Under the pieces are notes generated by a model. It did no database searches. It worked only from the letters and a program-made list of their open reading frames with translations, and was not told where the DNA came from. A DNA stretch of 64,000 bases from a virus, in IMG/VR virus record IMGVR_UViG_3300045971_000149, positions 1 to 64,000 of that record; one strand, 5' to 3'. Position numbers and translations under genes: made by a program. Of this stretch, positions 50,403-63,749 are shown in pieces (within the stretch, counting starts at the first letter, position 1; each line of letters begins with the position of its first letter).

Positions 50403-50485
50403 GTTATGTCCTACTGTTTGTTTGCTATGTGTGTATTATAACAAAGAACGACGAGACTGTCAAGTCCCGCCGCCCTGTAGGGTTA

Positions 50486-51373
50486 TCAGTTAGTCAGTAC
50501 GTACTGCGCAATGGCTTTCCAATTGCCGCCTGCTGCCCGAAGCTTTGTCACTGCTTGCAGTGTGCGCAGGCTAAGCTCTTTCACTTCGCCTTGCACGGAG
50601 CGGATAAGTGCCATCGCGTCGTCTTTATGCTTTTGGCTGTACTGCGGCATGAAAGTTGCACTGCTTGTCATATGCTGCATGCGTTCCACTTTCTGATCGC
50701 TTGTCATCTTCAAGTCAATGCAGTAAGCACGAGTCAACAGTGCGTTGGCTACTTGCTCGCGGCGCATGTTAGAGATGAAGATGATGCGTCCTTGGAATAC
50801 AAAGCTACGCGGCAGGTCGTCGTCTTTCATGTCTGCGTTCCAGCTAATCACTCGCTTGTCGTAGCTGTCCAAAGCGCCCTTCAGCAGGTTCAATGCAGTA
50901 GCATCTTTGAGCACATCGTCGCAGTCATCAAACACTAGCACACTGTCGCGATTCATGTACAGCTCGCGATACAAGCCCTTAGCAGTGCTATAGCCTTTGA
51001 TCATCTTGTATGCTTTAGACGGGGCGTCGCTTTCGAAGCTAGACACATCCTCAAGTCCGTTTGCAGCGAGTGCTTCCTTCACAGTGTGCGTCTTGCCCAA
51101 TCCGCCGGGACCAGTGATCAGTACGCTAGTCGCGTTGCCTTGTGCAATCATGTTAACGAGCTGCGTCACAAACTCGAAGCGCTGATTGATTGGCCATTTA
51201 GTGTCTTCGCCGTCTTGCGGAGCAGTGACATCTTCGCTTGCAGGCACAGTGACCTTGTGTCCCGCCTTAGCCATCATCTTCACAACGCGAGTCTGGTCGT
51301 AGGACTTAACGACTTTCTTTCCCATGTACATGCCAATCCAGTTGCCGTCTGCATAAACAATTTTAGCTTGCAT
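50486..51373 (-). CDS. AAA-type P-loop ATPase (paralogue A)
   Basis: GPGGLGKT, VFDDCD, IFISN; start moved to MQAKIV downstream of the promoter. Confidence 0.85.
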   Translation of the reverse strand: MQAKIVYADGNWIGMYMGKKVVKSYDQTRVVKMMAKAGHKVTVPASEDVTAPQDGEDTKWPINQRFEFVTQLVNMIAQGNATSVLITGPGGLGKTHTVKEALAANGLEDVSSFESDAPSKAYKMIKGYSTAKGLYRELYMNRDSVLVFDDCDDVLKDATALNLLKGALDSYDKRVISWNADMKDDDLPRSFVFQGRIIFISNMRREQVANALLTRAYCIDLKMTSDQKVERMQHMTSSATFMPQYSQKHKDDAMALIRSVQGEVKELSLRTLQAVTKLRAAGGNWKAIAQYVLTN

Positions 51374-51460
51374 TTCGTTTCCTTTTACTGCTTCGTTTAA
51401 CATGTATGTATTATAGTCTCATTGTGCAGAACAGTCAAGTCCCGCCAACTTGTAGGGTTA

Positions 51461-51664
51461 TTAGTAAGAAAGTGCTTTGGCTAGCGTCGCAGCATTCAAT
51501 GCGTTTTGCGCATCATACAGTGTGGCCGTTGCGCGGGCTACTGTGGCGTTAGATGCTTTCTCGCTGTTGTTTGCTACGTGGTACGCTACTAGCGCATCGG
51601 CGTATGCGAACACAAGTGCTTTGACTGTTCGATTGTGCTGCGCTGCGACTTTGACTGTTGCCAT
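51461..51664 (-). CDS. Small Ala-rich early protein
   Basis: Own promoter and AAGGAG RBS. Confidence 0.75.
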   Translation of the reverse strand: MATVKVAAQHNRTVKALVFAYADALVAYHVANNSEKASNATVARATATLYDAQNALNAATLAKALSY

Positions 51665-51744
51665 GCTGTACTCCTTGTTGCGATGTATGTATTATAGTCT
51701 CATTCAACGGAACTGTCAACAACCCTATGATCCATAGGGTTATT

Positions 51745-52085
51745 GTGAATAGGTGCTGTTCGTTTGGACTCTTACCACAGTGTTTCCCGATATGGCTAAC
51801 CGGCGCGGTTGATCACCGCAAAGGACATAGACAGCTTAGTCCTACTGTTTACTTCTCGCCTGATCAGGACGACTAGTTAGTTAAGGCGTTTCGAGCGATG
51901 GAAGATTTTACACTGTCTTGCGACTGAAGTGACTCCGTCTTTCGATGCGCTGTATGGCACCGGCCCCACTACCTTATTGTAACATGCTCGGGGAATACTG
52001 GCCCATTGCCAATCACTAGATCGGGTGAACGTTCAAACCTAAACACATTACAATAAGGGCACTGTAGTTTCCTACAGTGCTGTAC
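51745..52085 (-). ncRNA. Candidate structured non-coding RNA
   Basis: No credible ORF; 9-bp GAAA hairpin, 15-bp long-range stem, GCAA tetraloop stem and further hairpins. Confidence 0.6.
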
Positions 52086-52089
52086 CTAC

Positions 52090-52359
52090 TTACAGTACAA
52101 AGCCCAAACGCTGGCCTTCTTCAGCGACAGCTTGCGCAACATCCAAATCGTCGCAAACCCAATCGCTGTTAAGCAAAGCGTCTACGCAATCTTCTTGTCG
52201 CTCTGCTTGCGCCAACTCAATAAAGCGCACGTCAGTGTGACCGTTACGCTCCAGCACACCCTTACGGCCTTTGCTGTTAGCATAGCGCACAGCAAACACG
52301 CCGTTTTGCTTGGAAACGCCGACGAAAGTAAAAGTGTTTGTGTTAATGTCTTTTGCCAT
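52090..52359 (-). CDS. Small early protein, paralogue of 63112-63549
   Basis: FTFVGVSKQNGVFAVRYAN...VLERNGHTD matches FSHAGVSKLNGEYKVRYAN...VLAKNGHVD. Confidence 0.8.
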   Translation of the reverse strand: MAKDINTNTFTFVGVSKQNGVFAVRYANSKGRKGVLERNGHTDVRFIELAQAERQEDCVDALLNSDWVCDDLDVAQAVAEEGQRLGFVL

Positions 52360-52443
52360 TTTTAACTCCTAGTGTGTTTGTGTATGTATGTATTATAACG
52401 CCGTTTTGCTTTACTGTCAACTACCCTATGCACTGTAGGGTTA

Positions 52444-52653
52444 TTAGTATTTCTGTACGCGGATGATCTGATGCAAGTAAGCCCAGCTGCCGTTCTTGTC
52501 ATCGCCGCTTGCCAACGTGTAGCCAATGCCGGGAATGCCGTTCTTTATGTCTGCATCCACTTCGTCGACAATAGCGCGGACGCCCATGCCGCTGCCGAAG
52601 TTTGTGGCAACCCAAACGATGCTTCCCACCTTTACGTCGCGTAGTGTAATCAT
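52444..52653 (-). CDS. Small early protein
   Basis: MITLRDVKVG...; own promoter and RBS. Confidence 0.75.
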   Translation of the reverse strand: MITLRDVKVGSIVWVATNFGSGMGVRAIVDEVDADIKNGIPGIGYTLASGDDKNGSWAYLHQIIRVQKY

Positions 52654-52812
52654 ATAGTCCTTTGTTTGCATGTATGTATTATACTCTCAAACTGCAGAAC
52701 TGTCAACAACCCTATGCACCGTAGGGGCTTTATTGTGTTAGGCACAATCGCCGTCCATCCCCGCCTTGTTCGAAGTATGTATTGTAACACCTTCGATCAA
52801 GTTTGTCAATCC

Positions 52813-53058
52813 CTATCGTAGATCACCAAACAGGCTGAATCCAGTCTTGGGATCAGGAAGATCTGCGTTGTCGATTGGATGTATGACAGGCTCATCCTCT
52901 TGTTCAGCTTCGTCGGACAGCTTGATCAGGTTGAGCTCCTCCCATGCTCTCCACAGGTCGTAGTCAGGATCGCCAGTGTTGCTTTCCATAGCGGCTATTC
53001 CTTGTTGCAGGAACTGCAGGGCGATCTTAGCCCGGATGAGTTTCTCTTTGTGTTTCAT
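52813..53058 (-). CDS. Small early protein
   Basis: AAGGAAG RBS. Confidence 0.7.
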   Translation of the reverse strand: MKHKEKLIRAKIALQFLQQGIAAMESNTGDPDYDLWRAWEELNLIKLSDEAEQEDEPVIHPIDNADLPDPKTGFSLFGDLR

Positions 53059-53070
53059 GTTATTGCTTCC

Positions 53071-53211
53071 TTAGAATATGATTACTTCGTCGCCGTCGTC
53101 TTTAACTTCGTCGATCGGGTTAGTGCAGTCCCACTCGCCACACCACACAGTTACCTGCTTGTCCTGATCCATACGAGACAACATCTCCATCAATTCGCGT
53201 ACAGTCATCAT
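53071..53211 (-). CDS. Small early protein (46 aa; not in ORF track)
   Basis: MMTVRELMEMLSRMDQDKQV...; AAGGAG RBS after the promoter. Confidence 0.75.
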   Translation of the reverse strand: MMTVRELMEMLSRMDQDKQVTVWCGEWDCTNPIDEVKDDGDEVIIF

Positions 53212-53267
53212 CTACTCCTTTGTTGCTATGTATGTATTATACTCTCTTTTGGACAGAGTGTCAACCG

Positions 53268-53495
53268 CTATCGCACTTCGAATCGACCTTTAGCGTCACG
53301 AGCTGGATTGCGATAGATGTCACGATAGCTGCCAGATGCTAGTTGATAGACTGCGATGTCGCGTTGCTCTGTCTTCCAGAGATTGTATACAAAGTTGCAG
53401 CATTCGCCTAGACTGTTGCTTTCAAACAACACCACAGCGTCATCATCGTGTGCCAGCTTGAACTCGGGATTAAGGTAGAAGCATTGGTATTCCAT
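53268..53495 (-). CDS. Small early protein
   Basis: MEYQCFY...RDAKGRF. Confidence 0.65.
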   Translation of the reverse strand: MEYQCFYLNPEFKLAHDDDAVVLFESNSLGECCNFVYNLWKTEQRDIAVYQLASGSYRDIYRNPARDAKGRFEVR

Positions 53496-53496
53496 C

Positions 53497-53658
53497 TTAG
53501 ATCTTTGCGTCCTTAACCATAGCTTGACAGAAAAAACGGTAGCCATTGTCGCCACCAACAGACATACCACCTTGCAGTTTCCAACCATCTTCCAACATCT
53601 CGTTTACTGTGTCAGTGAGTGCGTCTGCGCTGGATTCTTGAACTGCAAAATATTCCAT
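53497..53658 (-). CDS. DUF1737-like small protein (53 aa; not in ORF track)
   Basis: LTDTVNEMLEDGWKLQGG...FCQAMVK. Confidence 0.7.
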   Translation of the reverse strand: MEYFAVQESSADALTDTVNEMLEDGWKLQGGMSVGGDNGYRFFCQAMVKDAKI

Positions 53659-53709
53659 TGTGTGTCCTTTGTTGCTATGTATGTATTATACTCTCTTTTG
53701 GACAGAGTG

Positions 53710-54252
53710 TCAACCAAAGTCCCGTGCCATCTTGTACTCGCAACGAGCAATCTCTTCCAACTGCTCCTTGATGCTATGCAAGCGATCATACAGGCGTTCC
53801 ATAGCCATATCCTGCTCAGGACCTTCGCCCAATGCACCTTCCTGGTATGCATCCAACTGCTCCTGGATAGCGATCTGCTCTTCGCACAGGTTGCCCACAT
53901 CGCCTACCATCACCTTAGGAACCATAACCTTAGCCACTGCGGCAGCGGCCTTCTCCTGTGCAATCTCTACCAACTGGCCTGCATACTTGTTGATGCGCGG
54001 CACACCTTTCACGTTGGGCTTGCGCCAGTATGCGATCTGCTTGTCGGACAAGCGGTTGAACTTGCTGTAGAAGTTAGCCATTGACGTGCCCATACGTGCA
54101 TCGGCGGGTGTGAAGCCAATGCCGTTCTGGTAGCGGGTCTGTTCGCTTACTTGCTCGTCACGCACTTGGCGTTCGTTGAGCACTACCAAAGCACGGGCAA
54201 TGGCCTTGTTAGAAGTGTTCAGCAGGTCCAGGATTTGTTGCTTGCTTGTCAT
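53710..54252 (-). CDS. Early hypothetical protein
   Basis: 180 aa; own promoter/RBS; stop codon lies in the next -35 box. Confidence 0.8.
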   Translation of the reverse strand: MTSKQQILDLLNTSNKAIARALVVLNERQVRDEQVSEQTRYQNGIGFTPADARMGTSMANFYSKFNRLSDKQIAYWRKPNVKGVPRINKYAGQLVEIAQEKAAAAVAKVMVPKVMVGDVGNLCEEQIAIQEQLDAYQEGALGEGPEQDMAMERLYDRLHSIKEQLEEIARCEYKMARDFG

Positions 54253-54287
54253 ACAGTACTCCTTGTTGCGATGTATGTATTATACAA

Positions 54288-54467
54288 TCAAACAGAAGCC
54301 TTGTCAACCTCTTTCTTCAGTTCGCTGTAGTTCTTCATCACAAAGACGTACTCGTCCTGTGTGAGTTTTGTTGCAGAAGCAGCTCTAGGATCGAGCATGT
54401 TCCACTTGCCGCTGCGTTGCACCTTGACGTAGGCTTTGAAGTCTTTCAGTTGCTTTGCTGTAAACAT
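54288..54467 (-). CDS. Small early protein
   Basis: MFTAKQLKDFKAYVKVQRSGKWNM; own promoter/RBS. Confidence 0.75.
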   Translation of the reverse strand: MFTAKQLKDFKAYVKVQRSGKWNMLDPRAASATKLTQDEYVFVMKNYSELKKEVDKASV

Positions 54468-54527
54468 TGTGTCTCCTTGTTGCGATGTATGTATTATACA
54501 ATCAAACTGCAGACCTGTCAACCGGAA

Positions 54528-54701
54528 TCAGTACGTCTCTTTGTGGATTGTGAACTGATCTGCAGGATACTTTGCTTTGAACTCATCCGTAGCCATGTAC
54601 TCGCGCAAGGCTTTGGCGTCAAAGAACACCTTACTCAGGACCGATTGTAGCTTGCCGATTGGGCACACTGTAAGATAGACTGACTTCGCTTTACCTGCCA
54701 T
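54528..54701 (-). CDS. Small early protein (57 aa; not in ORF track)
   Basis: MAGKAKSVYLTV...IHKETY; AGGAG RBS. Confidence 0.7.
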   Translation of the reverse strand: MAGKAKSVYLTVCPIGKLQSVLSKVFFDAKALREYMATDEFKAKYPADQFTIHKETY

Positions 54702-54811
54702 TAGAGTTCTCCTGTGATCAAATAGAATGCCAAGTCGGCATCAAAGGGTTCCCAAGGGACGATACATTCCAATCCTACCCAATGAATGTACTCGTTGCTG
54801 AATGTAGACAT
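54701..54811 (-). CDS. Small early peptide (36 aa; not in ORF track)
   Basis: MSTFSNEYIHWVG...; RBS; TAATG coupling to the next ORF. Confidence 0.6.
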   Translation of the reverse strand: MSTFSNEYIHWVGLECIVPWEPFDADLAFYLITGEL

Positions 54812-54844
54812 ATCGTTCCTTTGTTTGTGTGCTATTATAACACG

Positions 54845-55216
54845 TTATTGCAGATTGAGCAACTCTTTTTCTTCCTGGCTCAACTTCGCAAGGGCGTTCT
54901 GACGAACCAAATACTTGCGCTCTGCTTCGGCACGTTCTTCTTCTTTCCACTTCACTGCCCAGCTTAGGTCGTCCAAATCAGACTCTGCATCGGTGCTGTA
55001 GAAGAAGTCGACTTCGAAGTAAGTGCGATCGCGTTTGTCCAGATCAAACAGGCTAAACGTCATGTCGTTGCGAGCAGCCATTTCAAAGTTCGCGTGTTGG
55101 GCACGTTGCAGGACTGCCATCAAACGATTTGGGTAGGATGCCTCTTGTTCTTCAAGCATTGCCTGACGCACTACTTCTTCCCGGGCCATACGCTCTGCTT
55201 TAGTTTCTTTTGCCAT
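54845..55216 (-). CDS. Early hypothetical protein
   Basis: C-terminal ALAKLSQEEKELLNL; own promoter. Confidence 0.75.
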   Translation of the reverse strand: MAKETKAERMAREEVVRQAMLEEQEASYPNRLMAVLQRAQHANFEMAARNDMTFSLFDLDKRDRTYFEVDFFYSTDAESDLDDLSWAVKWKEEERAEAERKYLVRQNALAKLSQEEKELLNLQ

Positions 55217-55376
55217 TTCGTTCATCCTTTTTGTCTATGCGTTAATTATAGCAAGGTTTTACCAAAGCGTCAACACCTATTTCAAAGACCCTACAGGGTG
55301 ATGGGATAAATAAAAGTGCCGCTCGCGACACGCCAATGTCCAGCAGCTCTAACAGTTTATAAGGAACTAATCAGCA

Positions 55377-55727
55377 ATGTATTTACACTTCTATGTCTAC
55401 GCCTATCTGCGTATTGACGGCACACCCTACTACAAAGGCAATGGTGATCGAGCTTACGCAAAACACCGCATTCCTGTGCCAAAAGATCGATCGAGGATCG
55501 TGTTCCTTGAGACAAACCTAACTGATATCGGCGCATTGGCAATTGAGCGCAGACTGATTGCTTGGTACGGACGCAAGGACTTAGGCACAGGTATCTTGCG
55601 TAACCTTACAGACGGCGGCGAAGGTTCAAGTGGAGCAACTAGATCACAAGAAACTCGCGATAAAATATCAGCCGCAAAGAAAGGCATACCTGCTCATAAC
55701 AAAGGAAAAACGAGTAGGAAGAGTTAG
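55377..55727 (+). CDS. GIY-YIG/NUMOD3 homing endonuclease-like protein, probably defective
   Basis: [49 protein letters not shown]; the IG of the YIG motif is missing. Confidence 0.8.
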
Positions 55728-55771
55728 TTCCTACTGTTTGTTGCTATGTATGTATTTTACAACCGAAATGT

Positions 55772-55927
55772 CTACTTGTCAAGTGCTGTTAGGTCTTTTT
55801 TCAACCATGCAAGGTTAGTGGAACTCATCAACCGCAGACCATGGCGGAAGGCTATGTAGACTGACTTGGCGCCGCCTACGTGCTTCTCAATTATGAAAGT
55901 CTTGTACTGAAACCTATCTTTGATCAT
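55772..55927 (-). CDS. Small early protein
   Basis: MIKDRFQYKTF...; follows the 55929 ORF. Confidence 0.6.
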   Translation of the reverse strand: MIKDRFQYKTFIIEKHVGGAKSVYIAFRHGLRLMSSTNLAWLKKDLTALDK

Positions 55928-55928
55928 G

Positions 55929-56120
55929 TTAGGCAACCTTTGTGATCTCACCGCGCCAGTAGCACTCGTAGGATCCACCGTCCCAACGTGCCTTGTAGGC
56001 CTGCGCTTCTTCCAGTGTTGTAAAGAACTTGGTGTCACTTGGATCGCAGCGTTGACCCCAACCTGCTTCGTACTCGGTGATCACTACCTTATACAGTGTT
56101 CCCATCTTGACTTCGGACAT
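55929..56120 (-). CDS. Small early protein
   Basis: ITEYEAGWGQR; AAGGAG RBS. Confidence 0.75.
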   Translation of the reverse strand: MSEVKMGTLYKVVITEYEAGWGQRCDPSDTKFFTTLEEAQAYKARWDGGSYECYWRGEITKVA

Positions 56121-56170
56121 TTGCTTCTCCTTACTTGATGTATGTAGTATAACGCCGATCAGAGAAGATG

Positions 56171-56365
56171 TCAACCAACGAACTCCCTAACCCAATGAAA
56201 CCGTGTTGTAGCAGGCATCCACCGATACTGTTGACGCCTGCGTTCCTCTGTCTCAAAGTCGTAGCAGACGCAAACCCAACCGCGGTCTTCGGAGAACGCC
56301 ACCTTGTCAGCGACCTTCACAACCTGTACATACCTGCCGTCCATCATCTTTGCTACTATCATCAT
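56171..56365 (-). CDS. Small early protein
   Basis: AGGAGG RBS; stop codon in the -35 box. Confidence 0.7.
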   Translation of the reverse strand: MMIVAKMMDGRYVQVVKVADKVAFSEDRGWVCVCYDFETEERRRQQYRWMPATTRFHWVREFVG

Positions 56366-56528
56366 ATCGCCTCCTAGTCCATGCATGTATTATAGCAAAG
56401 AATAAAGACCCTGTCAACTGATGGGAATTAAACGGTTTACAGCAATGTTTCAGGTGGTCTGCGCATTAGCGACAACAGCAGCGATTCTACCGCTGTACGT
56501 CTATCTGAGGCCTATATAAATCAATGAC

Positions 56529-56717
56529 TTACGTCGCCTTAACCGTAGCATCTGAGACAACTTTAAGTAGATCAAATAAACGAGCCGTTCCGCAGGAGTA
56601 GGCAACAGTGTGAAGCTCGCCCTTATGCCCACACGTTCCACTCCGAACACAAGGGCAATCACATCGGAAAGGGCACACCTGCCCAATTGGGATCCTGCCC
56701 TGCACAAGGGTGCTCAC
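56529..56717 (-). CDS. Small Cys-rich protein
   Basis: GTGA coupling; CPFRCDCPC..C.H..C. Confidence 0.55.
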   Translation of the reverse strand: MSTLVQGRIPIGQVCPFRCDCPCVRSGTCGHKGELHTVAYSCGTARLFDLLKVVSDATVKAT

Positions 56718-56839
56718 TTTGCCACCTGTGTCACTGCCGCCTTAGTCGCTTCGATTCCTTTATCAGCAACCTTAGCAACCCCAGCGAAGCCCACGGTTGC
56801 TACCGCGATGCCCAAGATGAATCCGATTAGAAATTGCAT
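56714..56839 (-). CDS. Small membrane peptide (41 aa; not in ORF track)
   Basis: MQFLIGFILGIAVATVGFAGVAKVADKG...; AAGGA RBS. Confidence 0.7.
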   Translation of the reverse strand: MQFLIGFILGIAVATVGFAGVAKVADKGIEATKAAVTQVAK

Positions 56840-56851
56840 AGTGTTTCCTTG

Positions 56852-57211
56852 TTAAGCAATTGACTTGAAGTAACCATAAGGGATGCCTTGTTCCCAGCAA
56901 AAGTAGTCCCAGTCGCCGTTGCAACCGCTAGCTTCCATCAACCAACGCAGTGCATCTTCACGTGAACCAGCACCAGTTGCAATCGTAGCGCGAACCAGCA
57001 ACTCCAGCTTCTCGATAGCCGCAACCTGATCCAACTCACGTTGTTCCCACACAACCTTAGCCTGCTCACCCAAACGGGTTAGCATCTCCACCAAGTCTTC
57101 TTCTGTGCAGGAAGCAAAGTCTACCCAACGAGGACGCACGTTGTACACTTCCTTGTAGAAGTCCCAGTACTCTGCTACCAGTTCGTCTTTGCGGGTCATT
57201 ACGTATTCCAT
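56852..57211 (-). CDS. Conserved phage early protein
   Basis: YWDFYKEVYNVRPR...GIPYGYF. Confidence 0.8.
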   Translation of the reverse strand: MEYVMTRKDELVAEYWDFYKEVYNVRPRWVDFASCTEEDLVEMLTRLGEQAKVVWEQRELDQVAAIEKLELLVRATIATGAGSREDALRWLMEASGCNGDWDYFCWEQGIPYGYFKSIA

Positions 57212-57267
57212 TGTGTGTCCTTTGTTGCTATGTATGTATTATACTCTCAATTCGCAGGGCTGTCAAC

Positions 57268-57384
57268 CTATCCCTTAGCGATCTTGATAGCAAGTGCAAT
57301 CAACTGTGCGGTAGTCAACGGAACGAACTTTTGGTCCTGAGCCCGCTTAACGTGATCTGCTTGAACAATAGTAAACTGTGGCAT
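57268..57384 (-). CDS. Small early peptide (38 aa; not in ORF track)
   Basis: MPQFTIVQADHVKRA...; own promoter/RBS. Confidence 0.6.
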   Translation of the reverse strand: MPQFTIVQADHVKRAQDQKFVPLTTAQLIALAIKIAKG

Positions 57385-57439
57385 GTTGTTTCCTTAGTGT
57401 GTTGCGATGTATGTATTATAAGGCCAATTCGGAAAACTG

Positions 57440-57757
57440 TCAAGTAGTCTCTTCCAGTTCTTCCCATCCCATAGAAGCACACAAGTAGTTCACACCGTCC
57501 ACTTCTACAATGTCGCCTACACTAACAGAGCGACCACGTCCGTACAGTTGCTCGCGTTCGCCTTGACGCGACGGGTTGTTTGTCAGGTCAAATGCTTCTT
57601 CAGCAGCGTCAATGCCTTCTGCATCAACTGCAAAGCAAGGGCGGATCTCATAGGATTTGTAGTTGTCCATTGCCACGTTGGCTTGACCACGCTTGCTAGT
57701 GTAGAAAGACATTATCAGTTCTGCAGGGGCTAGCTTGATAGTTACTACTGAAATCAT
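57440..57757 (-). CDS. Early hypothetical protein (YodL-like RSVSVGDIV motif)
   Basis: RSVSVGDIVEVDG...YLCASMGW. Confidence 0.75.
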   Translation of the reverse strand: MISVVTIKLAPAELIMSFYTSKRGQANVAMDNYKSYEIRPCFAVDAEGIDAAEEAFDLTNNPSRQGEREQLYGRGRSVSVGDIVEVDGVNYLCASMGWEELEETT

Positions 57758-57821
57758 TGTGTGCTCCTTGTTGCGATGTATGTATTATAACAAAGAAAGC
57801 AGGGGCTGTCAACCCCGTTGC

Positions 57822-58043
57822 TTACTTGAGACCAAACAGTCTTGCAGCTTCTAACGCAGCAGCAGGCAGCGGCTCGCCCGTGCTTTTTGCAATAGTAAAC
57901 GCGGCTTGCATTGCAGCAAGTTGCGCAGGGCTAACACGCACACCCAAATAGGAGCCAACCTCAACTTTAGCTTGCAAACTGCGCAAACTGTTAAGTTGAC
58001 GCTTGGACAAGTTGGAAACTACTGCGGATTGTACTGGAGTCAT
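57822..58043 (-). CDS. Small early protein
   Basis: Own promoter/RBS. Confidence 0.7.
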   Translation of the reverse strand: MTPVQSAVVSNLSKRQLNSLRSLQAKVEVGSYLGVRVSPAQLAAMQAAFTIAKSTGEPLPAAALEAARLFGLK

Positions 58044-58107
58044 TTTGTGTTCCTTTGTTGCGATGTATGTATTATAGCGCCTTTCAATAACCCTGTCAAC
58101 CGATGGG

Positions 58108-58317
58108 TTATTCCTTCTCTTGCACCCAGAGGCTATCTAGGTCTGCATCTAGGTCTGCCAGCAACCCTGCAATCGCAAAGGCGTACTCATCACCAACATC
58201 TGTACCACCTAACTCTTGGGCAATAATTGCAGCGGCCGACTCCAGGCGCATCTTGGCCTGTGACAGGTTGTAGATTGCCTTACGTTGCTCTGCGGTGAGC
58301 GTTGCGGTGTTAGTCAT
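58108..58317 (-). CDS. Small early protein
   Basis: Second gene of the cassette. Confidence 0.65.
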   Translation of the reverse strand: MTNTATLTAEQRKAIYNLSQAKMRLESAAAIIAQELGGTDVGDEYAFAIAGLLADLDADLDSLWVQEKE

Positions 58318-58320
58318 GCC

Positions 58321-58494
58321 CTATGCGCCTTCAATGCTTTCCAGCTCATGCAGTTGCACCATCAAGTCCAAACGCACGGCGTACAGGGCGTTGATCTCAT
58401 CCTCCATCCCATCCAACAGTTCCAGCAAGTCAATAGATCCTTGCAAGCGCAGGATTGCCATTTCCAAGTGGTGTGTTGCAGTAGTTCCGTCCAT
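58321..58494 (-). CDS. Small early protein (57 aa; not in ORF track)
   Basis: MDGTTATHHLEMAILRL...; AAGGAG RBS. Confidence 0.7.
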   Translation of the reverse strand: MDGTTATHHLEMAILRLQGSIDLLELLDGMEDEINALYAVRLDLMVQLHELESIEGA

Positions 58495-58576
58495 TGTGTA
58501 CTCCTTGTTGCGATGTATGTATTATAACGCTAAAGTGTGCAGCAGTCAACCAAAGACCCTGCACACTATAGGGCTA

Positions 58577-58810
58577 TTAATTTACTGTGTTGCAGCCCAT
58601 CAACTTACCCTTCAAGCTGTACGCACAAGCGTAAATGCGACCGGGCTCCATGCTGTCCTCTGTGCACGTTACAAACGCAAGCACTTCATCCTTGCCCTGA
58701 TACTTTACAACTTTAGCACTTTGTTGCAGGAAGTTGTTGCCGAAGGGCAGTTGCTTTTTAGCAACGGTGAATGCAATGCCGTTTGCGCTAACAGTAATGT
58801 CGTTTTTCAT
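58577..58810 (-). CDS. Small early protein
   Basis: MKNDITVSANG...; own promoter. Confidence 0.7.
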   Translation of the reverse strand: MKNDITVSANGIAFTVAKKQLPFGNNFLQQSAKVVKYQGKDEVLAFVTCTEDSMEPGRIYACAYSLKGKLMGCNTVN

Positions 58811-58889
58811 AAAGCCCTTTGTGTTGTTTAAGTATGTATTATAACGCAAAGAAGGGCTACTGTCAACAATAGCCCTTCACGTTAGTCAA

Positions 58890-59150
58890 CTATGCAAGCA
58901 CACACTTGACAGTAATTCCTGCACCAAAACTACGGTGCCATGCCTCGGGTTCCTGCGTAAGCGTAACATTTTCCGCACCGCAAGCGGCACGCAATGCAGC
59001 AAGTGCCTTGTCGTTTCCGCGGTAATAGCACTTAACGCGGCGTTGGTTGCCCGTGTGTCCTGTTGTTTTGTTTGTGTACATCATATTTCCGTTAACGCCG
59101 TTGGCGCGCATGATGTTACGGACTTGCAGGGTGGTAAGCAGTTTAGCCAT
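58890..59150 (-). CDS. Small early protein
   Basis: Own promoter/RBS. Confidence 0.75.
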   Translation of the reverse strand: MAKLLTTLQVRNIMRANGVNGNMMYTNKTTGHTGNQRRVKCYYRGNDKALAALRAACGAENVTLTQEPEAWHRSFGAGITVKCVLA

Positions 59151-59230
59151 TTCGTTTCCTTTTGCGTTTAAAAATGTATTATAACAGCAAAGCGCAAAGT
59201 TGTCAACAACCCTACGCTTTACTCAACTAC

Positions 59231-59551
59231 TTAAAATTCGTACACGTCGTCCGTTTCCTCAACCCACAGTGTGCCATCCTTGCGTTTGTACACTACAACG
59301 TCCTTGCCGTAAAAGCGTTCGTCTTCGTATGCACTGCCCATAAAGTCGTACACTTCCACACCTTCAACCCGCTTCATGTCGCGCAGTGCAAAGCGTTCCA
59401 CAATCGTGTCGCCGTCATCGCCGTCGCTTGCAAGTGTCCAACCTTCTGTTCCAATGTTGTACTTCACATTGTCTTGCCAACGTGCGTCATCTTGCCACAG
59501 TGTTTGCAACAATTGCAGTTTCACAAACTTCAGCGTTTTAACTTCTTTCAT
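59231..59551 (-). CDS. Small acidic early protein
   Basis: Own promoter/RBS. Confidence 0.75.
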   Translation of the reverse strand: MKEVKTLKFVKLQLLQTLWQDDARWQDNVKYNIGTEGWTLASDGDDGDTIVERFALRDMKRVEGVEVYDFMGSAYEDERFYGKDVVVYKRKDGTLWVEETDDVYEF

Positions 59552-59625
59552 ACAGTTCCTTTGTTGCTATGTGTGTATTATAGCAGCAAAGCGCAAAGCT
59601 GTCAACAACCCTATGCACTGTAGGG

Positions 59626-59904
59626 TTATACCTCTTCCTCTTCTGTCTCCTTGACTTCCCACAACGGCTCAGCGAAGTCGTAGCCTTCTGATATCAGTTC
59701 CTCTGCTGCACGGATGAACTCGGCTTGTAGATCCCATACTGCGGCTGCGATGCGTTCGTCTTTCTTGCGGCGTGCTCGAGCAGTGCCTTCCTGATAGATC
59801 ATTCCGTAGTGTTCTTTGCAGTAGCTCGATTCATTGTGAAGAGCAGTGCAACCACAAGGAACGTTGCCGTTCCCCAGGTATTGGCATTCAGTTACTTTGT
59901 CCAT
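59626..59904 (-). CDS. Small Cys/His zinc-binding protein (GcrA C-terminal-like)
   Basis: CQYLG...CG.....SSYCKEHY..IY. Confidence 0.55.
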   Translation of the reverse strand: MDKVTECQYLGNGNVPCGCTALHNESSYCKEHYGMIYQEGTARARRKKDERIAAAVWDLQAEFIRAAEELISEGYDFAEPLWEVKETEEEEV

Positions 59905-59925
59905 TTTCGTTATCCTTTGTTATTT

Positions 59926-60801
59926 TTAAATTCGACGCATGCAGGTAGTCTTGCACATTGCTTGCCAGCTAGCAGGAAAGCTCTTGCGCAAGTCAGCAAC
60001 CTTCAACACCATACGTAGTGACAGTTCGCGCAGCTTATCCTTGTTGTCATTAATAAACTTAACAACCTCGGCTTCCACTTCGGGCTCGAACTCGTAGTTA
60101 GCAAGCATCTTTGCGCCGGTAACCACTTGGTGTATACGCAGCATCTTTTCACGTTGCGTATCCATTTGCAGATCGATATAGTGACAACGGCTTTCCAATG
60201 CTGCCAAGTGCTCCTTCAAACGTTTAGACTTAACGTGCTCAAACTTAATGTTAGTAATAAAGATCGCAGAACCTTTAAACTCGAAACGATCCGGGATGCC
60301 TTCGCCACGCAGCAAGCGGCTATCAGTGTTCCAGCTAATCCAACGCTTCTCGGAACTGTCCAATGCACCTTTCAAGATGTTCAGGCTAATCTCGTCCAAC
60401 AGCACAGAGTCGCAGTCGTCGAATACAACCACACTACCTTTAGCAGAGTACTCATACAGCTTGCGGTACAGGCCTAGTGCGCTAATAGCACCACCTTTGA
60501 CGATTTCGTACTTTGGCTTCTTATTGGCAAGCTTAGTGAACAGGTCATCCTTTTCCAGGACTTTCTCAATACCAAAGGACTTACCAACACCAGGAGGGCC
60601 ACTAACAATCATTGCACGTACATCGCCGCTCTTCACAGCCTTTGCCATCTCCGTTAGGATCATAAAGCGTTCTTCAAGACGCGCAAGGATCTCTTCGTCG
60701 GTTTCGCGGGCCACCTCTTGCTCACGTGCTTTGATCTTATCGTGATCAAACTCAAGTACTGTTGCGCCTGCGGATGCTTTTTTGGATGCTGCTGTTGCCA
60801 T
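59926..60801 (-). CDS. AAA-type P-loop ATPase (paralogue B)
   Basis: GPPGVGKS, VFDDCD, IFITN, LESRC. Confidence 0.88.
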   Translation of the reverse strand: MATAASKKASAGATVLEFDHDKIKAREQEVARETDEEILARLEERFMILTEMAKAVKSGDVRAMIVSGPPGVGKSFGIEKVLEKDDLFTKLANKKPKYEIVKGGAISALGLYRKLYEYSAKGSVVVFDDCDSVLLDEISLNILKGALDSSEKRWISWNTDSRLLRGEGIPDRFEFKGSAIFITNIKFEHVKSKRLKEHLAALESRCHYIDLQMDTQREKMLRIHQVVTGAKMLANYEFEPEVEAEVVKFINDNKDKLRELSLRMVLKVADLRKSFPASWQAMCKTTCMRRI

Positions 60802-60874
60802 TGTATATTCCTTAGTGTGGTTGTGTATGTGTGTATTATAACAAAGAAACGTTACCTTGTCAACCTCTTTATGC

Positions 60875-61099
60875 TTACAGAGTAAACTGTTTCAGCAATG
60901 TCGTTGCCATCTTGGTATCGTTAACCTTATCCATAAAGGCCAGGATCATCAACTCTACCACAGTCTCGGCGTCCTTGCGATCAGCCTTACCCAGAGTGGC
61001 AATAAAGCGTCGAACCTGATCCTGCCCCTCCATTGCCCATATGATGTCAGCGAATGCCATCTGCTTTGCGGAAAGTCCCGGGATTACAATATCGTTCAT
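60875..61099 (-). CDS. Small early protein
   Basis: AAGGA RBS. Confidence 0.7.
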   Translation of the reverse strand: MNDIVIPGLSAKQMAFADIIWAMEGQDQVRRFIATLGKADRKDAETVVELMILAFMDKVNDTKMATTLLKQFTL

Positions 61100-61108
61100 G
61101 ATAGTTCC

Positions 61109-61243
61109 TTACTTCTTAGGCTTGACTTGCTTTGCTTCTTGTGCAGCGATCTTGCCGCTGTAGGCCTTGCCTGCTTTGTGGATAAGGCCGGTCTTTGTGT
61201 AAACAATTGTACCGCCAGTGGATGATGCTTTGGATGCTTGCAT
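61109..61243 (-). CDS. Small basic peptide (44 aa; not in ORF track)
   Basis: MQASKASSTGGTIVYTKTGLIHKAG...KPKK. Confidence 0.7.
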   Translation of the reverse strand: MQASKASSTGGTIVYTKTGLIHKAGKAYSGKIAAQEAKQVKPKK

Positions 61244-61302
61244 TGTGTATTCCTTTGTTGCTATGTATGTATTATAACGTCTATCTTCTAACCTGTCAAC
61301 CT

Positions 61303-61557
61303 TCAGGGTTCAAACCACTCGGTGCTTTCAACACGAACGAGCTTAGTGCGGGTGAGATGATGGAACTCAGGATCTTCGTCCTGCTCTGCCATCTCCTGGA
61401 AGAAGAAGTGATAATCCTCACCGCTGTCTTCGTCCAATGCACAGAAGGCACCTTCGTCAAAGTCTGTCCATTGCATACGCAGCCACATGCCACCGGGCGT
61501 AACATAGAAGCAAGCACCTTCAGCCGCTTCAAAGATCTGTTTAGCAGTGTATTTCAT
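61303..61557 (-). CDS. Small early protein
   Basis: ATGA-coupled. Confidence 0.7.
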   Translation of the reverse strand: MKYTAKQIFEAAEGACFYVTPGGMWLRMQWTDFDEGAFCALDEDSGEDYHFFFQEMAEQDEDPEFHHLTRTKLVRVESTEWFEP

Positions 61558-61706
61558 TCTGTTTCCTTTTCAACGAATTCGACGTTGTCAATGTCTTCGC
61601 CACGCCCGGGCTCCAAATTAGTCCAGATGGCATCAGCAACCCAATTGCGGGGATGTGATGCTTCATCGTCCAGGATCAAGTCAAAGGATACGCGGTATGT
61701 TTTCAT
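61554..61706 (-). CDS. Small early protein
   Basis: MKTYRVSFDL...HPRNWVAD; GGAG RBS. Confidence 0.7.
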   Translation of the reverse strand: MKTYRVSFDLILDDEASHPRNWVADAIWTNLEPGRGEDIDNVEFVEKETE

Positions 61707-61707
61707 T

Positions 61708-61872
61708 TCAGTAATCTCCGTAGACTGCGTCAAGTTGCTCTTCAAAGTCAGCGATGATCTCTTCCACAATCTCCTGCGGCACAGAAGTAATAGCAGCAAT
61801 CTCGTCAGCAGCAAGACCTTGCTCGTCGTACAGCTCAGTAATCTCGCAGTACAGTTCTTTCATTTTGGACAT
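61708..61872 (-). CDS. Small acidic HTH-like protein
   Basis: GLAADEIAAITSVPQEIVEEII. Confidence 0.65.
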   Translation of the reverse strand: MSKMKELYCEITELYDEQGLAADEIAAITSVPQEIVEEIIADFEEQLDAVYGDY

Positions 61873-61942
61873 TGTGTGTTCCTTTGTTGCTATGTATGTA
61901 TGTATTATAACAGCCTTTTTACGGGCTGTCATCAAAGACCCT

Positions 61943-62191
61943 TTACACTAGTCGGAAATTCTTGCTGAGGAACTTTGACACTTTGCTGTAACCGTGCTCC
62001 TTAATCAGCTCGCTCACCAGTGCGTCTGCTTCGGGCGCATTGCCGCAAGTGGTCATACGATCTGCATCCAGCACCATTTCGATTGCATCCCCATTGGACT
62101 CGCAGAACTCCATAGCATCGGAACCAATGTAGTTCCAAGTTGCGTAAACGGCTTGATTGAGTTGGGAAATAACTGTTGCGTCTAGCTTCAT
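61943..62191 (-). CDS. Small early protein
   Basis: Own promoter/RBS. Confidence 0.75.
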   Translation of the reverse strand: MKLDATVISQLNQAVYATWNYIGSDAMEFCESNGDAIEMVLDADRMTTCGNAPEADALVSELIKEHGYSKVSKFLSKNFRLV

Positions 62192-62246
62192 ACTGTACTC
62201 CTTGTTGCGATGTATGTATTATAGCGCCTATTGAAAAAACAGTCAA

Positions 62247-62273
62247 GAGAAACCCGCCACAAAGGACGGGTTT
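62247..62273 (-). terminator. Intrinsic terminator-like hairpin
   Basis: AAACCCGTC-loop-GGCGGGTTTCTCT on the minus strand. Confidence 0.6.
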
Positions 62274-62290
62274 AAGTGAGCTAGGAAAGC

Positions 62291-62563
62291 TTACAGAGTG
62301 ATGCCAAGTGCACGCGCCTTGAAGCCCAATGCAACGATCTCACGGCTTGGACGTCCGAGTTCGTATTCTGTGACTACAACGCCATTGCCAGCAGTGCGAG
62401 TATTTGCGTAGACTGCGTATCCGAATTGACGGATACGTGATGCTTCTGCGCGTAGATTGCCAACTGAGAAGCGATTACGTGCTTCTGCTTGTGTCAACTT
62501 CTCGCCTGCTGCCAATGCTGCGAATACCTTACCGGTCTTAGTGTCTTGATTAATCTTCTTCAT
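62291..62563 (-). CDS. Winged helix-turn-helix DNA-binding protein
   Basis: AL..GEKLTQAEARNRFSVGNLRAEASRIRQFGYAV...YELG. Confidence 0.75.
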   Translation of the reverse strand: MKKINQDTKTGKVFAALAAGEKLTQAEARNRFSVGNLRAEASRIRQFGYAVYANTRTAGNGVVVTEYELGRPSREIVALGFKARALGITL

Positions 62564-62625
62564 TTGTTATTCCTTGTAATACTGCTTAACAGTTAATACA
62601 AGTATAACAACAACGATTTGGTAAA

Positions 62626-62847
62626 TCAAGCACTTATCTTGCCAAATTCCTTTTTCGTGTGATAGTTAGCCAGCATCTCGTGTACCATACTAACTACATT
62701 GTCGTGATCTTCAGTTAGAAGGAACTGAACAGGGCTTTTACTCCAAGAGCGGTTCTTCAAGAACTCTGAATAGATATCACGATGCTTCTTGTCCGCCGGA
62801 TTGAACATTACAGTCGGACGGCCATAGTTTTGCAAAACGCTTGCCAT
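62626..62847 (-). CDS. Hypothetical protein
   Basis: FNPADKKHR...WSKSPVQF. Confidence 0.7.
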   Translation of the reverse strand: MASVLQNYGRPTVMFNPADKKHRDIYSEFLKNRSWSKSPVQFLLTEDHDNVVSMVHEMLANYHTKKEFGKISA

Positions 62848-62848
62848 A

Positions 62849-63064
62849 TTAGCTAGACTTTATAGAAGATTTAAACAACAAGCCGCACAGGACATTGATT
62901 CCTAATGCAGTCCATACAGAGTTGATTGGATGAATTCCGTCAACAACTCCTACCAAGCAATCATTCCATAGCCACATTGTAGGGTATGCAAACAGCAATG
63001 CCATTACCACAACGATTGCAACAATGCCAACGATTCCGACAATAACAACAAACAACTTATCCAT
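62849..63064 (-). CDS. Small membrane protein
   Basis: Two hydrophobic segments, PTMWLWN. Confidence 0.75.
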   Translation of the reverse strand: MDKLFVVIVGIVGIVAIVVVMALLFAYPTMWLWNDCLVGVVDGIHPINSVWTALGINVLCGLLFKSSIKSS

Positions 63065-63111
63065 ATTCAACTCCAGTTAAAGTACTATACAGCGGGGTCT
63101 TGGGTATTGAA

Positions 63112-63549
63112 TTAAACCAATGCTTCGCCAACGGCCTTAAGTGCTTCGTCGTCGGTAAGCTTCTTCTTAATAACTGCCTTTGCTTCGGCGATAGTCACGA
63201 GCGGGCCAGTAGGGCCTTCAACTGCGGGCAGCTTAGCCTTAACAGCTTTAGTCTTTGCAGGAGCTTCCTTCTTGGGCTTGTCTTTGGATGCAGCTTTAGG
63301 AGCGGGTTCGGAACGCTTGTCAACTTCAGCTTCCAATGCAGCACGGATCTCTGCTTTGCCGTTGTCAAAGTCAATGCCGATCAAATATGCAACTGCATCT
63401 TCCTTGGACATTGGGTGTTTCAATTCCACGATATCAATATCAACGTGGCCGTTCTTTGCAAGCACCTTAACGCGCATTGCGTCATTGGCATAGCGAACTT
63501 TGTATTCGCCGTTCAGTTTAGATACGCCAGCATGTGAAAAAGTAGTCAT
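63112..63549 (-). CDS. Conserved early protein with Lys/Ala-rich tail
   Basis: AGVSKLNGEYKVRYAND; own promoter/RBS. Confidence 0.8.
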   Translation of the reverse strand: MTTFSHAGVSKLNGEYKVRYANDAMRVKVLAKNGHVDIDIVELKHPMSKEDAVAYLIGIDFDNGKAEIRAALEAEVDKRSEPAPKAASKDKPKKEAPAKTKAVKAKLPAVEGPTGPLVTIAEAKAVIKKKLTDDEALKAVGEALV

Positions 63550-63635
63550 TTGTAGTTCCTTCTGTGTGTGTTTTAAACAGCACCTTGCTGTCTATGTGTT
63601 AATTATAACGCCTAATGGAAAATTCGTCAACCAAT

Positions 63636-63749
63636 TTATTGTTGTTTTTCTGCAACAATATTGAAGCCTGCTTCGGCTTGCTCATCTGCTTCGTATTGTG
63701 TATACACTGTGAACAGGTACAGTTCACCGTCCCAAATTTGATAGCTCAT
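63636..63749 (-). CDS. Small peptide (37 aa; not in ORF track)
   Basis: MSYQIWDGELYLFSV...; ATGA-coupled. Confidence 0.6.
   Translation of the reverse strand: MSYQIWDGELYLFTVYTQYEADEQAEAGFNIVAEKQQ

Follow-up and report, generated by a model that had tools for sequence, protein, structure and literature searches.

What does a short inverted repeat, CCC-N11-GGG, do beside the early promoters of an uncultured phage? The repeat, which we call the dyad, lies in the first 64 kb (64,000 nucleotides (nt), referred to as the window) of the 157,925-base IMG/VR virus record IMGVR_UViG_3300045971_000149, rated ~44% complete. An initial annotation of this sequence described it as an unrecognised operator or recombination site with an unchanging spacing, better explained by a dimeric DNA-binding protein than by an RNA terminator. 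We consider it probable that the dyad instead supplies the GC core of a small hairpin with a palindromic sequence, and that this hairpin is the stem-loop part of terminator/promoter cassettes in an early hyperplastic region, of the type known as promoter-early stem-loops (PeSLs) in the T4-type phages RB49/phi1, T4/PST, and KVP40/nt-1 (Arbiol et al. 2010, PMC2839356; Comeau et al. 2014, PMC4122927).

The source is an uncultured jumbo myophage. The window encodes a tail sheath of 1118 amino acids (aa), a large terminase, and a helicase; the best cultured match of the terminase is Pseudomonas jumbo phage PA5oct at 53% identity, and relatives recovered through an ATPase gene make the phage a member of a large clade of uncultured phages. 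The early genes, at ~50.4-67.6 kb of the record, are on the minus strand and are served by ~33 almost identical cassettes with the layout GG-TTGACA-N17-TATAAT-ACATACAT(C/A)GCAACAAGGAG-N-ATG, where AAGGAG and the ATG lie within a conserved leader downstream of the promoter. The pattern TTGACA-N17-TATAAT is matched at 12 of 12 positions by 18 promoters and at 11 of 12 by 9 more. Nucleotide searches of cultured phage genomes with the early region and with one cassette returned no match, and PA5oct, the closest cultured relative for which RNA-seq data exist, is without the dyad (18 sites per strand, compared with 28 for a control pattern).

All ten exact CCC-N11-GGG sites of the initial annotation, and the CCC-N11-CGG at 61939-61955, were located where it had placed them. 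The window holds 11 CCC-N11-GGG sites against 3.75 expected, a count that 0 of 100 shuffles reached, and the 13.6 kb from 50.4 to 64 kb hold 10 against 0.74 expected, a count that 0 of 1000 dinucleotide shuffles reached. When CCC-Nk-GGG was counted over the whole 158-kb record for k = 3-24, the single peak was k = 11, with 20 sites compared to 3-13 for each other k. Thirteen of these 20 fall in 50-68 kb, including three past the window end (record 64927, 65609, and 67554), and the seven outside the early region have no common flanks and resemble background. The initial view of the dyad as real, non-random, and promoter-associated is correct.

The anatomy and flanks of the dyad are read here on the minus (coding) strand. 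Its 5' end coincides with or directly follows the upstream gene's stop codon, most often as aTAACCC, and its 3' end lies 2-17 nt ahead of the next -35, or else the dyad brackets the -35 (56409, 58091, and record 64927); the earlier description, with the -35 straddled at 56409 and 58091 and the dyad upstream of it at the other sites, is accurate. A search with the neighbouring ATPase gene brought up at least 577 stretches of related DNA from viral contigs, from which 80 loci (1.2 Mb, 858 promoters) were kept. Promoter-adjacent dyads in these loci number 107 for CCC-N11-GGG and 74 for CCC-N12-GGG, so the spacing does change. These 181 sites, with k = 11 and k = 12 counted apart, represent 148 distinct sequences; part of the N12 count comes from N11 sites that end in a GGGG run, and part from an element of another kind. 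For the opposite polarity, GGG-N-CCC, these loci show a scatter over many spacings. From the GGG end to the start of the -35 the distance runs from -17 to +10 with at least ten different values, and the -35 lies within the interior in ~40% of the distinct sites; a change of spacing by one nucleotide is common even in this -35-in-loop class. Such tolerance between 11 and 12 fits a loop, while a rigid dimer would not accommodate it. The distance to the upstream stop codon behaves differently. Of 107 dyads with a nearby upstream open reading frame (ORF) end in this record and the 80 loci, 43 have a stop codon that starts 3 nt ahead of CCC and 23 have one that starts 6 nt ahead; in another 23 the upstream ORF crosses CCC and ends 9-12 nt past the CCC start, approximately at the TGA of TTGACA when the -35 is in the loop. 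Because the distance to the stop codon is nearly fixed and that to the -35 is variable, the dyad is positioned by the end of the gene and not by the promoter.

Position matrices of the family sites gave a 27-nt palindromic consensus, AAWRACCCTAC-N5-GTAGGGTYWTT, A-rich on the 5' side and T-rich on the 3' side. In the 8 nt before CCC the share of A is 47-49%, and in the 8 nt that follow GGG the share of T is 52%, compared with a background of 27-29% (27% for T). The 3' flank is typically GGGTCTTTGG; in the window the T-tracts are short and interrupted (GGGTCTTTGG, GGGTTGTTGAC, TCTTTGG, TTGTTGAC), and relatives often have runs of 5-6 T after the dyad. The initial statement that there is no U-tract was therefore too strong. 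An independent scan of viral contigs for ACCCTA-N7-TAGGGT-N2-8-TTGAC found at least 119 stretches with the motif, and 110 distinct sites among the matches listed were aligned. Many of these listed sites are textbook terminators consisting of an A-tract, a stem of 7-8 base pairs (bp) formed by ACCCTAC/GTAGGGT, a 5-nt loop, and T5-6.

Pairing between the arms was evaluated by covariation and by exchange of halves. In the 110-site alignment the covariation score was 0.138, compared with 0.113 ± 0.009 in shuffled alignments (2 of 500 reached it) and 0.055-0.082 when the partners were slid, and the flanking pairs show A-U, U-A, G-C, and G-U states. Since the search pattern itself set the core and the sites are relatives of one another, this signal is modest support for pairing and not proof. 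The native 5' and 3' halves of these sites folded at -12.65 kcal/mol, while chimeras gave -11.71 ± 0.20 kcal/mol and 0 of 50 chimera sets were as good. Similarly, the family dyads that lie upstream of the -35 gave -10.57 kcal/mol with native halves and -9.26 ± 0.35 kcal/mol as chimeras (0 of 30 sets).

Hairpins of unrelated sequence occupy the same place at other junctions of the array, in the window at 58851-58878, 59191-59218, and 57802-57816. A perfect-stem hairpin of -8 kcal/mol or lower is present in 20% of 723 distinct family promoter contexts versus 4% in shuffles; of the 143 such hairpins, 107 are not dyad-based and 37 have the -35 in the loop. At 50466 and at record 65609, the GGG of the dyad doubles as the 5' arm of a stronger hairpin around the -35. 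That different sequences fold in the same place suggests that structure is the common requirement of these junctions. The features of an intrinsic terminator, a GC stem of at least 5 bp, a 3-8-nt loop, and a U-rich tract, are found in many relatives and in the hairpins at 58851-58878 and 50445-50476, whereas the window copies of the dyad have 3-6 paired core bases and loops of 7-11 nt.

Several results weigh against the hairpin. In the window only the dyads at 51723 and 58091 fold better than shuffles (z-scores in Table 1); of the other eight, which range from -2.6 to -9.6 kcal/mol, four are slightly better (z = -0.56 to -1.40) and four are no better. None of the ten window dyads passed a simple terminator scan of the minus strand. 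A first covariation test on the 148 distinct family dyads found flank pairing equal to the expectation from shuffles and column composition, and in the native-versus-chimera comparison the arms of the -35-in-loop class were not fitted to each other. Sense and antisense strands folded equally well, so RNA structure and DNA structure are not separable on this basis. The symmetric preference of the two arms (ACCCTAC / GTAGGGT) and the sharp spacing, with k = 10 and k = 13 almost absent next to family promoters, would also be expected of a site for a dimeric protein. Collectively, the evidence for the dyad as a structure is mixed for the window and modestly positive for the family. The window copies are degenerate and weak with poor U-tracts, and are thus probably leaky attenuators at best.

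Table 1. Dyads, other hairpins, and associated features of the early region (window coordinates)
Feature	Position	Strand	Remarks
CCC-N11-GGG dyad after TAA stop	50466..50482	minus	3' GGG also in stronger -35-centred hairpin 50445-50476
CCC-N11-GGG dyad directly after TAA	51441..51457	minus	weak pairing, 3 bp core; -35 from 51438
Dyad, 13-bp stem, 3-nt loop	51723..51739	minus	-17.4 kcal/mol, z = -5.5; sole strong hairpin of the ten; -35 from 51719
Dyad TAACCCTA-CAGTGCA-TAGGGT after TAA	52424..52440	minus	-8.2 kcal/mol; -35 from 52420
Dyad CCCTA-CGGTGCA-TAGGG	52710..52726	minus	-5.1 kcal/mol; -35 from 52706
Dyad; likelier fold is the inner mini-hairpin ACCC-TGTA-GGGT, then CTTTG	55289..55305	minus	-35 (TTGACG) from 55273
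Dyad around -35 (CCCATCAG-TTGACA-GGG), then TCTTTATTCTTT	56409..56425	minus	very weak fold, -2.6 kcal/mol
Dyad around -35 (AATAACCC-ATCGGTTGACA-GGGTTATT)	58091..58107	minus	8-bp stem, 11-nt loop, -9 kcal/mol, z = -2.0
Dyad GCCCT-N9-AGGGT, then CTTTGG	58557..58573	minus	-35 at 58549
Dyad ATAACCCTA-CAGTGCA-TAGGGTTGT after TAA	59609..59625	minus	-9.6 kcal/mol; -35 from 59605
Degenerate dyad, CCG-N11-GGG on the minus strand	61939..61955	minus	3' half GGGTCTTTG kept before ATGACA -35
CCC-N12-GGG variant AAACCCGTC-CTTTGT-GGCGGGTTT	62253..62270	minus	9-bp stem, 6-nt loop, -11.9 kcal/mol (stem search allowing G-U); followed by CTCTTGAC; hairpin ends 3 nt before TTGACT -35 at 62246; downstream of the winged-HTH gene
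Strong hairpin, no CCC-N11-GGG	58851..58878	minus	12-bp stem, -18.4 kcal/mol, -35 at apex, TTGA in tetraloop, TTTGCGTT tail
-35-centred hairpin	59191..59218	minus	12-bp stem including G-U, -14.8 kcal/mol; 5' arm is a lone TAGGGTTG half-dyad
GGGGTT-GAC-AGCCCC hairpin around -35	57802..57816	minus	G/C polarity opposite to dyad
sigma70-type early promoter array, ~27 in window	50403..63640	minus	one to three small genes per promoter
Winged helix-turn-helix (HTH; HTH_39) early protein, 90 aa	62291..62563	minus	Pfam 23.3 bits vs cut-off 21.3; in 42 of 80 loci

A second explanation sees in the dyad a double-stranded DNA operator. A dimeric protein of the phage or its host, such as the HTH_39 protein that the initial annotation named as candidate binder, would bind it and shut off or tune some of the early promoters, above all the three with a bracketed -35. 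The CCC and GGG are coupled at a sharp spacing (11, sometimes 12) around a free interior, both arms prefer the same sequence, the interior was replaced at an orthologous junction with CCC-N11-GGG kept (see below), and folding of the window copies is weak. There is also a conserved winged-HTH protein among the early gene products, its initial assignment agreeing with the Pfam match, and the authors of the PeSL work themselves speculated that the conserved stem may be a protein target (PMC2839356, Discussion). However, the centre of the dyad lies at many offsets from the -35 that are not in helical phase, yet the dyad is locked to the upstream stop. Where a dimeric repressor would call for invariant spacing and a fixed promoter position, we find two spacings and at least ten offsets, with shifts of one base pair common even among dyads that enclose the -35. 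Independent half-sites would show neither the covariation of the arms nor the mutual fit of native halves; the A-tract and T-tract flanks, with T5-6 in relatives, are terminator features; unrelated hairpins substitute for the dyad at other junctions; and nothing ties the candidate winged-HTH protein to the dyads. For these reasons the dimeric-protein site preferred initially agrees less well with the data than a hairpin, and we regard the operator as unlikely. It is also quite unlikely, in our estimate, that the CCC-N11/12-GGG geometry is kept because a phage protein (the early winged-HTH or another) reads it as double-stranded DNA, as an extruded hairpin, or as an RNA hairpin, whether for family-wide silencing or insulation of a subset of early promoters or as a helper in site-directed cassette exchange, along lines on which the PeSL authors once speculated. 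Separately, a second candidate nucleic-acid binder is encoded at 63112-63549 on the minus strand, a 145-aa early protein found in 45 of 80 loci (~70% identity) whose central segment is rich in Lys/Ala/Pro and resembles histone H1; Pfam gave no match for it.

The hairpin reading, which we prefer, predicts the following arrangement from the sequence. In the minus-strand transcript the hairpin would come at the very end of the message of the upstream gene, often with the stop codon in the stem. There it would act in RNA and terminate transcription, the hairpin and its T-rich 3' flank attenuating read-through from the upstream promoter and capping the upstream mRNA, and the next sigma70 promoter would follow 2-17 nt further on or lie inside the loop. 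The cassettes would constitute one family kept alike by recombination between them, leading to the near-constant spacing and the conserved CCC/GGG, and at sites with the -35 in the loop the loop would have to be long enough for GGTTGACA.

Exchange of cassettes was observed directly in related loci. In one locus (L046) two tandem cassettes flank a small gene, and in another (L049) the gene is lost and one chimeric cassette is present; the crossover lies in a shared -10/leader segment, TATAATACACACATGGACA, and not in the dyad. In a second pair (L009 and L011) both flanking genes are kept (89% and 77% identity) and the cassettes differ (70%), and both cassettes retain CCC-N11-GGG though the interior is fully replaced. 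The initial suggestion of a recombination site is thus correct in that dyad-bearing cassettes recombine, but the mapped crossover is in the -10/leader. When synteny breakpoints were compared with promoters, 13 of 34 ends lay within 50 nt, which is not clearly above chance. An orthologous dyad downstream of the Zn-ribbon gene (92 aa, 59626-59904; present in 73 of 80 loci) was not traceable, the neighbourhood not being conserved; downstream of the homologues of this gene most relatives have G-rich GGTGGGG-like repeats and no early cassette.

The dyad could also lack a function of its own, being the decaying relic of a once-strong terminator that is copied and homogenised with its cassette and serves at most as recombination homology. 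The ten window sites are not independent but fall into a small number of groups with nearly the same cassette: the 17-mers at 52424 and 59609 are identical, those at 58091 and record 64927 each lie within a copy of a near-identical 75-nt cassette, and 50466, 51441, and record 65609 have CCCTACA(A/G)G..GGCGGG in common. Half-dyads without a partner occur at 59206, 65957 (record), and 61939, and in orthologous copies the CCC or GGG has decayed to CCA or AGG. In favour of a relic, too, are the folds of the window copies, most of which gain little or nothing over shuffled sequence, and the one mapped crossover, which lies in the -10/leader and not in the dyad. Against it, CCC, GGG, and the spacing persist despite complete turnover of the interior, which argues for selection on the two arms, and the family enrichment is strong, with 181 promoter-adjacent sites in 1.2 Mb and the further viral-contig stretches found by the scan. 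We judge a dyad of this kind to be distinctly unlikely.

Very unlikely, in our view, is a hairpin that acts in RNA other than as a terminator, as a processing or stability signal or as the site of a phage RNA-binding protein (for antitermination or translational control) on early transcripts that have been read through. The pairing evidence is the same as for a terminator, and the weak U-tracts of the window make efficient termination doubtful. The CCCU/AGGG stem core also resembles the stem of lambda boxB. However, the loop sequence of the family sites shows no conservation that a protein might read, Rfam gave no family at gathering score over the whole window, the stems fall far short of the length that RNase III needs, and the family flanks are classic terminator tracts. 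A proposal that the loops of upstream-class dyads are decayed -35 hexamers was rejected, as T at loop positions 6-7 is 13-18% compared with 82-100% in the -35-in-loop class.

Other features of the early region were noted. Most early genes have no homologue in the 80 related loci, and a few core genes have one. Two paralogous AAA-type ATPases are encoded within the array on the minus strand (50486-51373 and 59926-60801); both belong to PHROG 1250 and are ~33% identical to each other's relatives, and that at 59926-60801 shows the highest conservation of any early gene in the clade, with 70-77% identity in the 80 loci. The genes are tightly packed, and 129 of 434 dyad-less junctions in related loci use the TGA inside the next TTGACA as the upstream stop (in the window, for example, the junction at 53713). 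On the minus strand, a 351-nt stretch free of ORFs (51740-52090) separates the gene at 52090-52359 from the dyad at 51723. It folds at -114.3 kcal/mol compared with -94.4 kcal/mol for shuffles (z = -3.96), opens with a 9-bp/GAAA hairpin free of mismatches (52059-52080), includes a long helix of 18 bp, and is a candidate phage non-coding RNA. Rfam offered no credible match for it, and none of the 80 related loci has a homologue; an Rfam search of 51650-52150 at lax threshold gave one weak, irrelevant match over 51714-51749. On the plus strand, a 116-aa ORF (55377-55727) opposes the early array. It carries a NUMOD3 motif (Pfam, 21.3 bits), its N-terminus appears GIY-YIG-like by eye, and the product is probably a short Seg-type homing endonuclease; the ORF is absent from all 80 related loci, and its 3' end is marked by a two-way hairpin (55713-55735). 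A tRNA search found none, and the convergent region at 45.6-46.1 kb offered no reference terminator for comparison.

If the hairpin reading is correct, the PeSL design would not be confined to T4-type phages, and a terminator hairpin joined to a strong host-type promoter would be a portable joint between small early genes. The same design would organise the early region across a large clade of uncultured jumbo phages, represented by the related stretches recovered with the ATPase gene and by those that carry the motif. The consensus AAWRACCCTAC-N5-GTAGGGTYWTT beside TTGACA is a clean signature by which arrays of early genes and the borders of their cassettes can be located in phage contigs from metagenomes. 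No new regulatory principle would be involved unless a protein reads the dyad.

Among known systems, palindromic operators of dimeric phage regulators include LexA-type sites, CTGT-N8-ACAG, and the phi29 p4 sites, which act from different promoter positions. The dyad resembles such operators as an inverted repeat with a free centre, conserved arms, and half-site centres ~12 bp apart, in some cases over the -35, and differs from them in its variable promoter register, its two spacings, its covarying arms, and its lock to the stop codon. Intrinsic (Rho-independent) terminators of the bidirectional type are closer to the family consensus, with the A-rich flank, the ACCCTAC/GTAGGGT stem, and the T-rich flank, whereas the window copies have few core pairs and broken T-tracts and fail the scan on the transcribed strand. 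PeSL cassettes present the upstream stop codon, a stem-loop, a near-consensus sigma70 promoter, a Shine-Dalgarno sequence, and the ATG in this order; the stem-loop lies upstream of the -35, overlaps the -35 or the -10, or lies between both; the stems are conserved within a lineage, as A3-4 G3-loop-C3 T3-4 in nt-1; in a lacZ assay one stem-loop equalled rrnB T1 in terminating transcription; and the cassettes mediate gene shuffling (PMC2839356; PMC4122927). The present phage is not T4-type, so that membership would be by architecture and not by lineage. The polarity is reversed here, with the C-run 5' and the G-run 3', the spacing of the GC core is unusually uniform at 11-12, and the window hairpins are far weaker than the poly-G/poly-C stems of PeSLs. 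In other respects the likeness is close, and an element with the sequence of stop codon, stem-loop, and sigma70 promoter described for PeSL cassettes (PMC2839356; PMC4122927) can no longer be called unrecognised. Both arrays consist of small, mostly ORFan early genes in a plastic region with a repeated cassette before each, and the order from stop codon to ATG is the same. Here too the stem-loop has a variable register, upstream of the -35 in some cassettes and over it in others, the stem is conserved within the lineage (A-rich CCC-loop-GGG T-rich), and degraded 'half' copies are present. In addition, two identical promoters at record 64219 and 64509 carry a GCGCC-GAAA-GGCGC tetraloop hairpin in the -35/-10 spacer, which corresponds to another PeSL subclass. 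As in the PeSL phages, relatives differ by gain and loss of genes through crossover of neighbouring cassettes.

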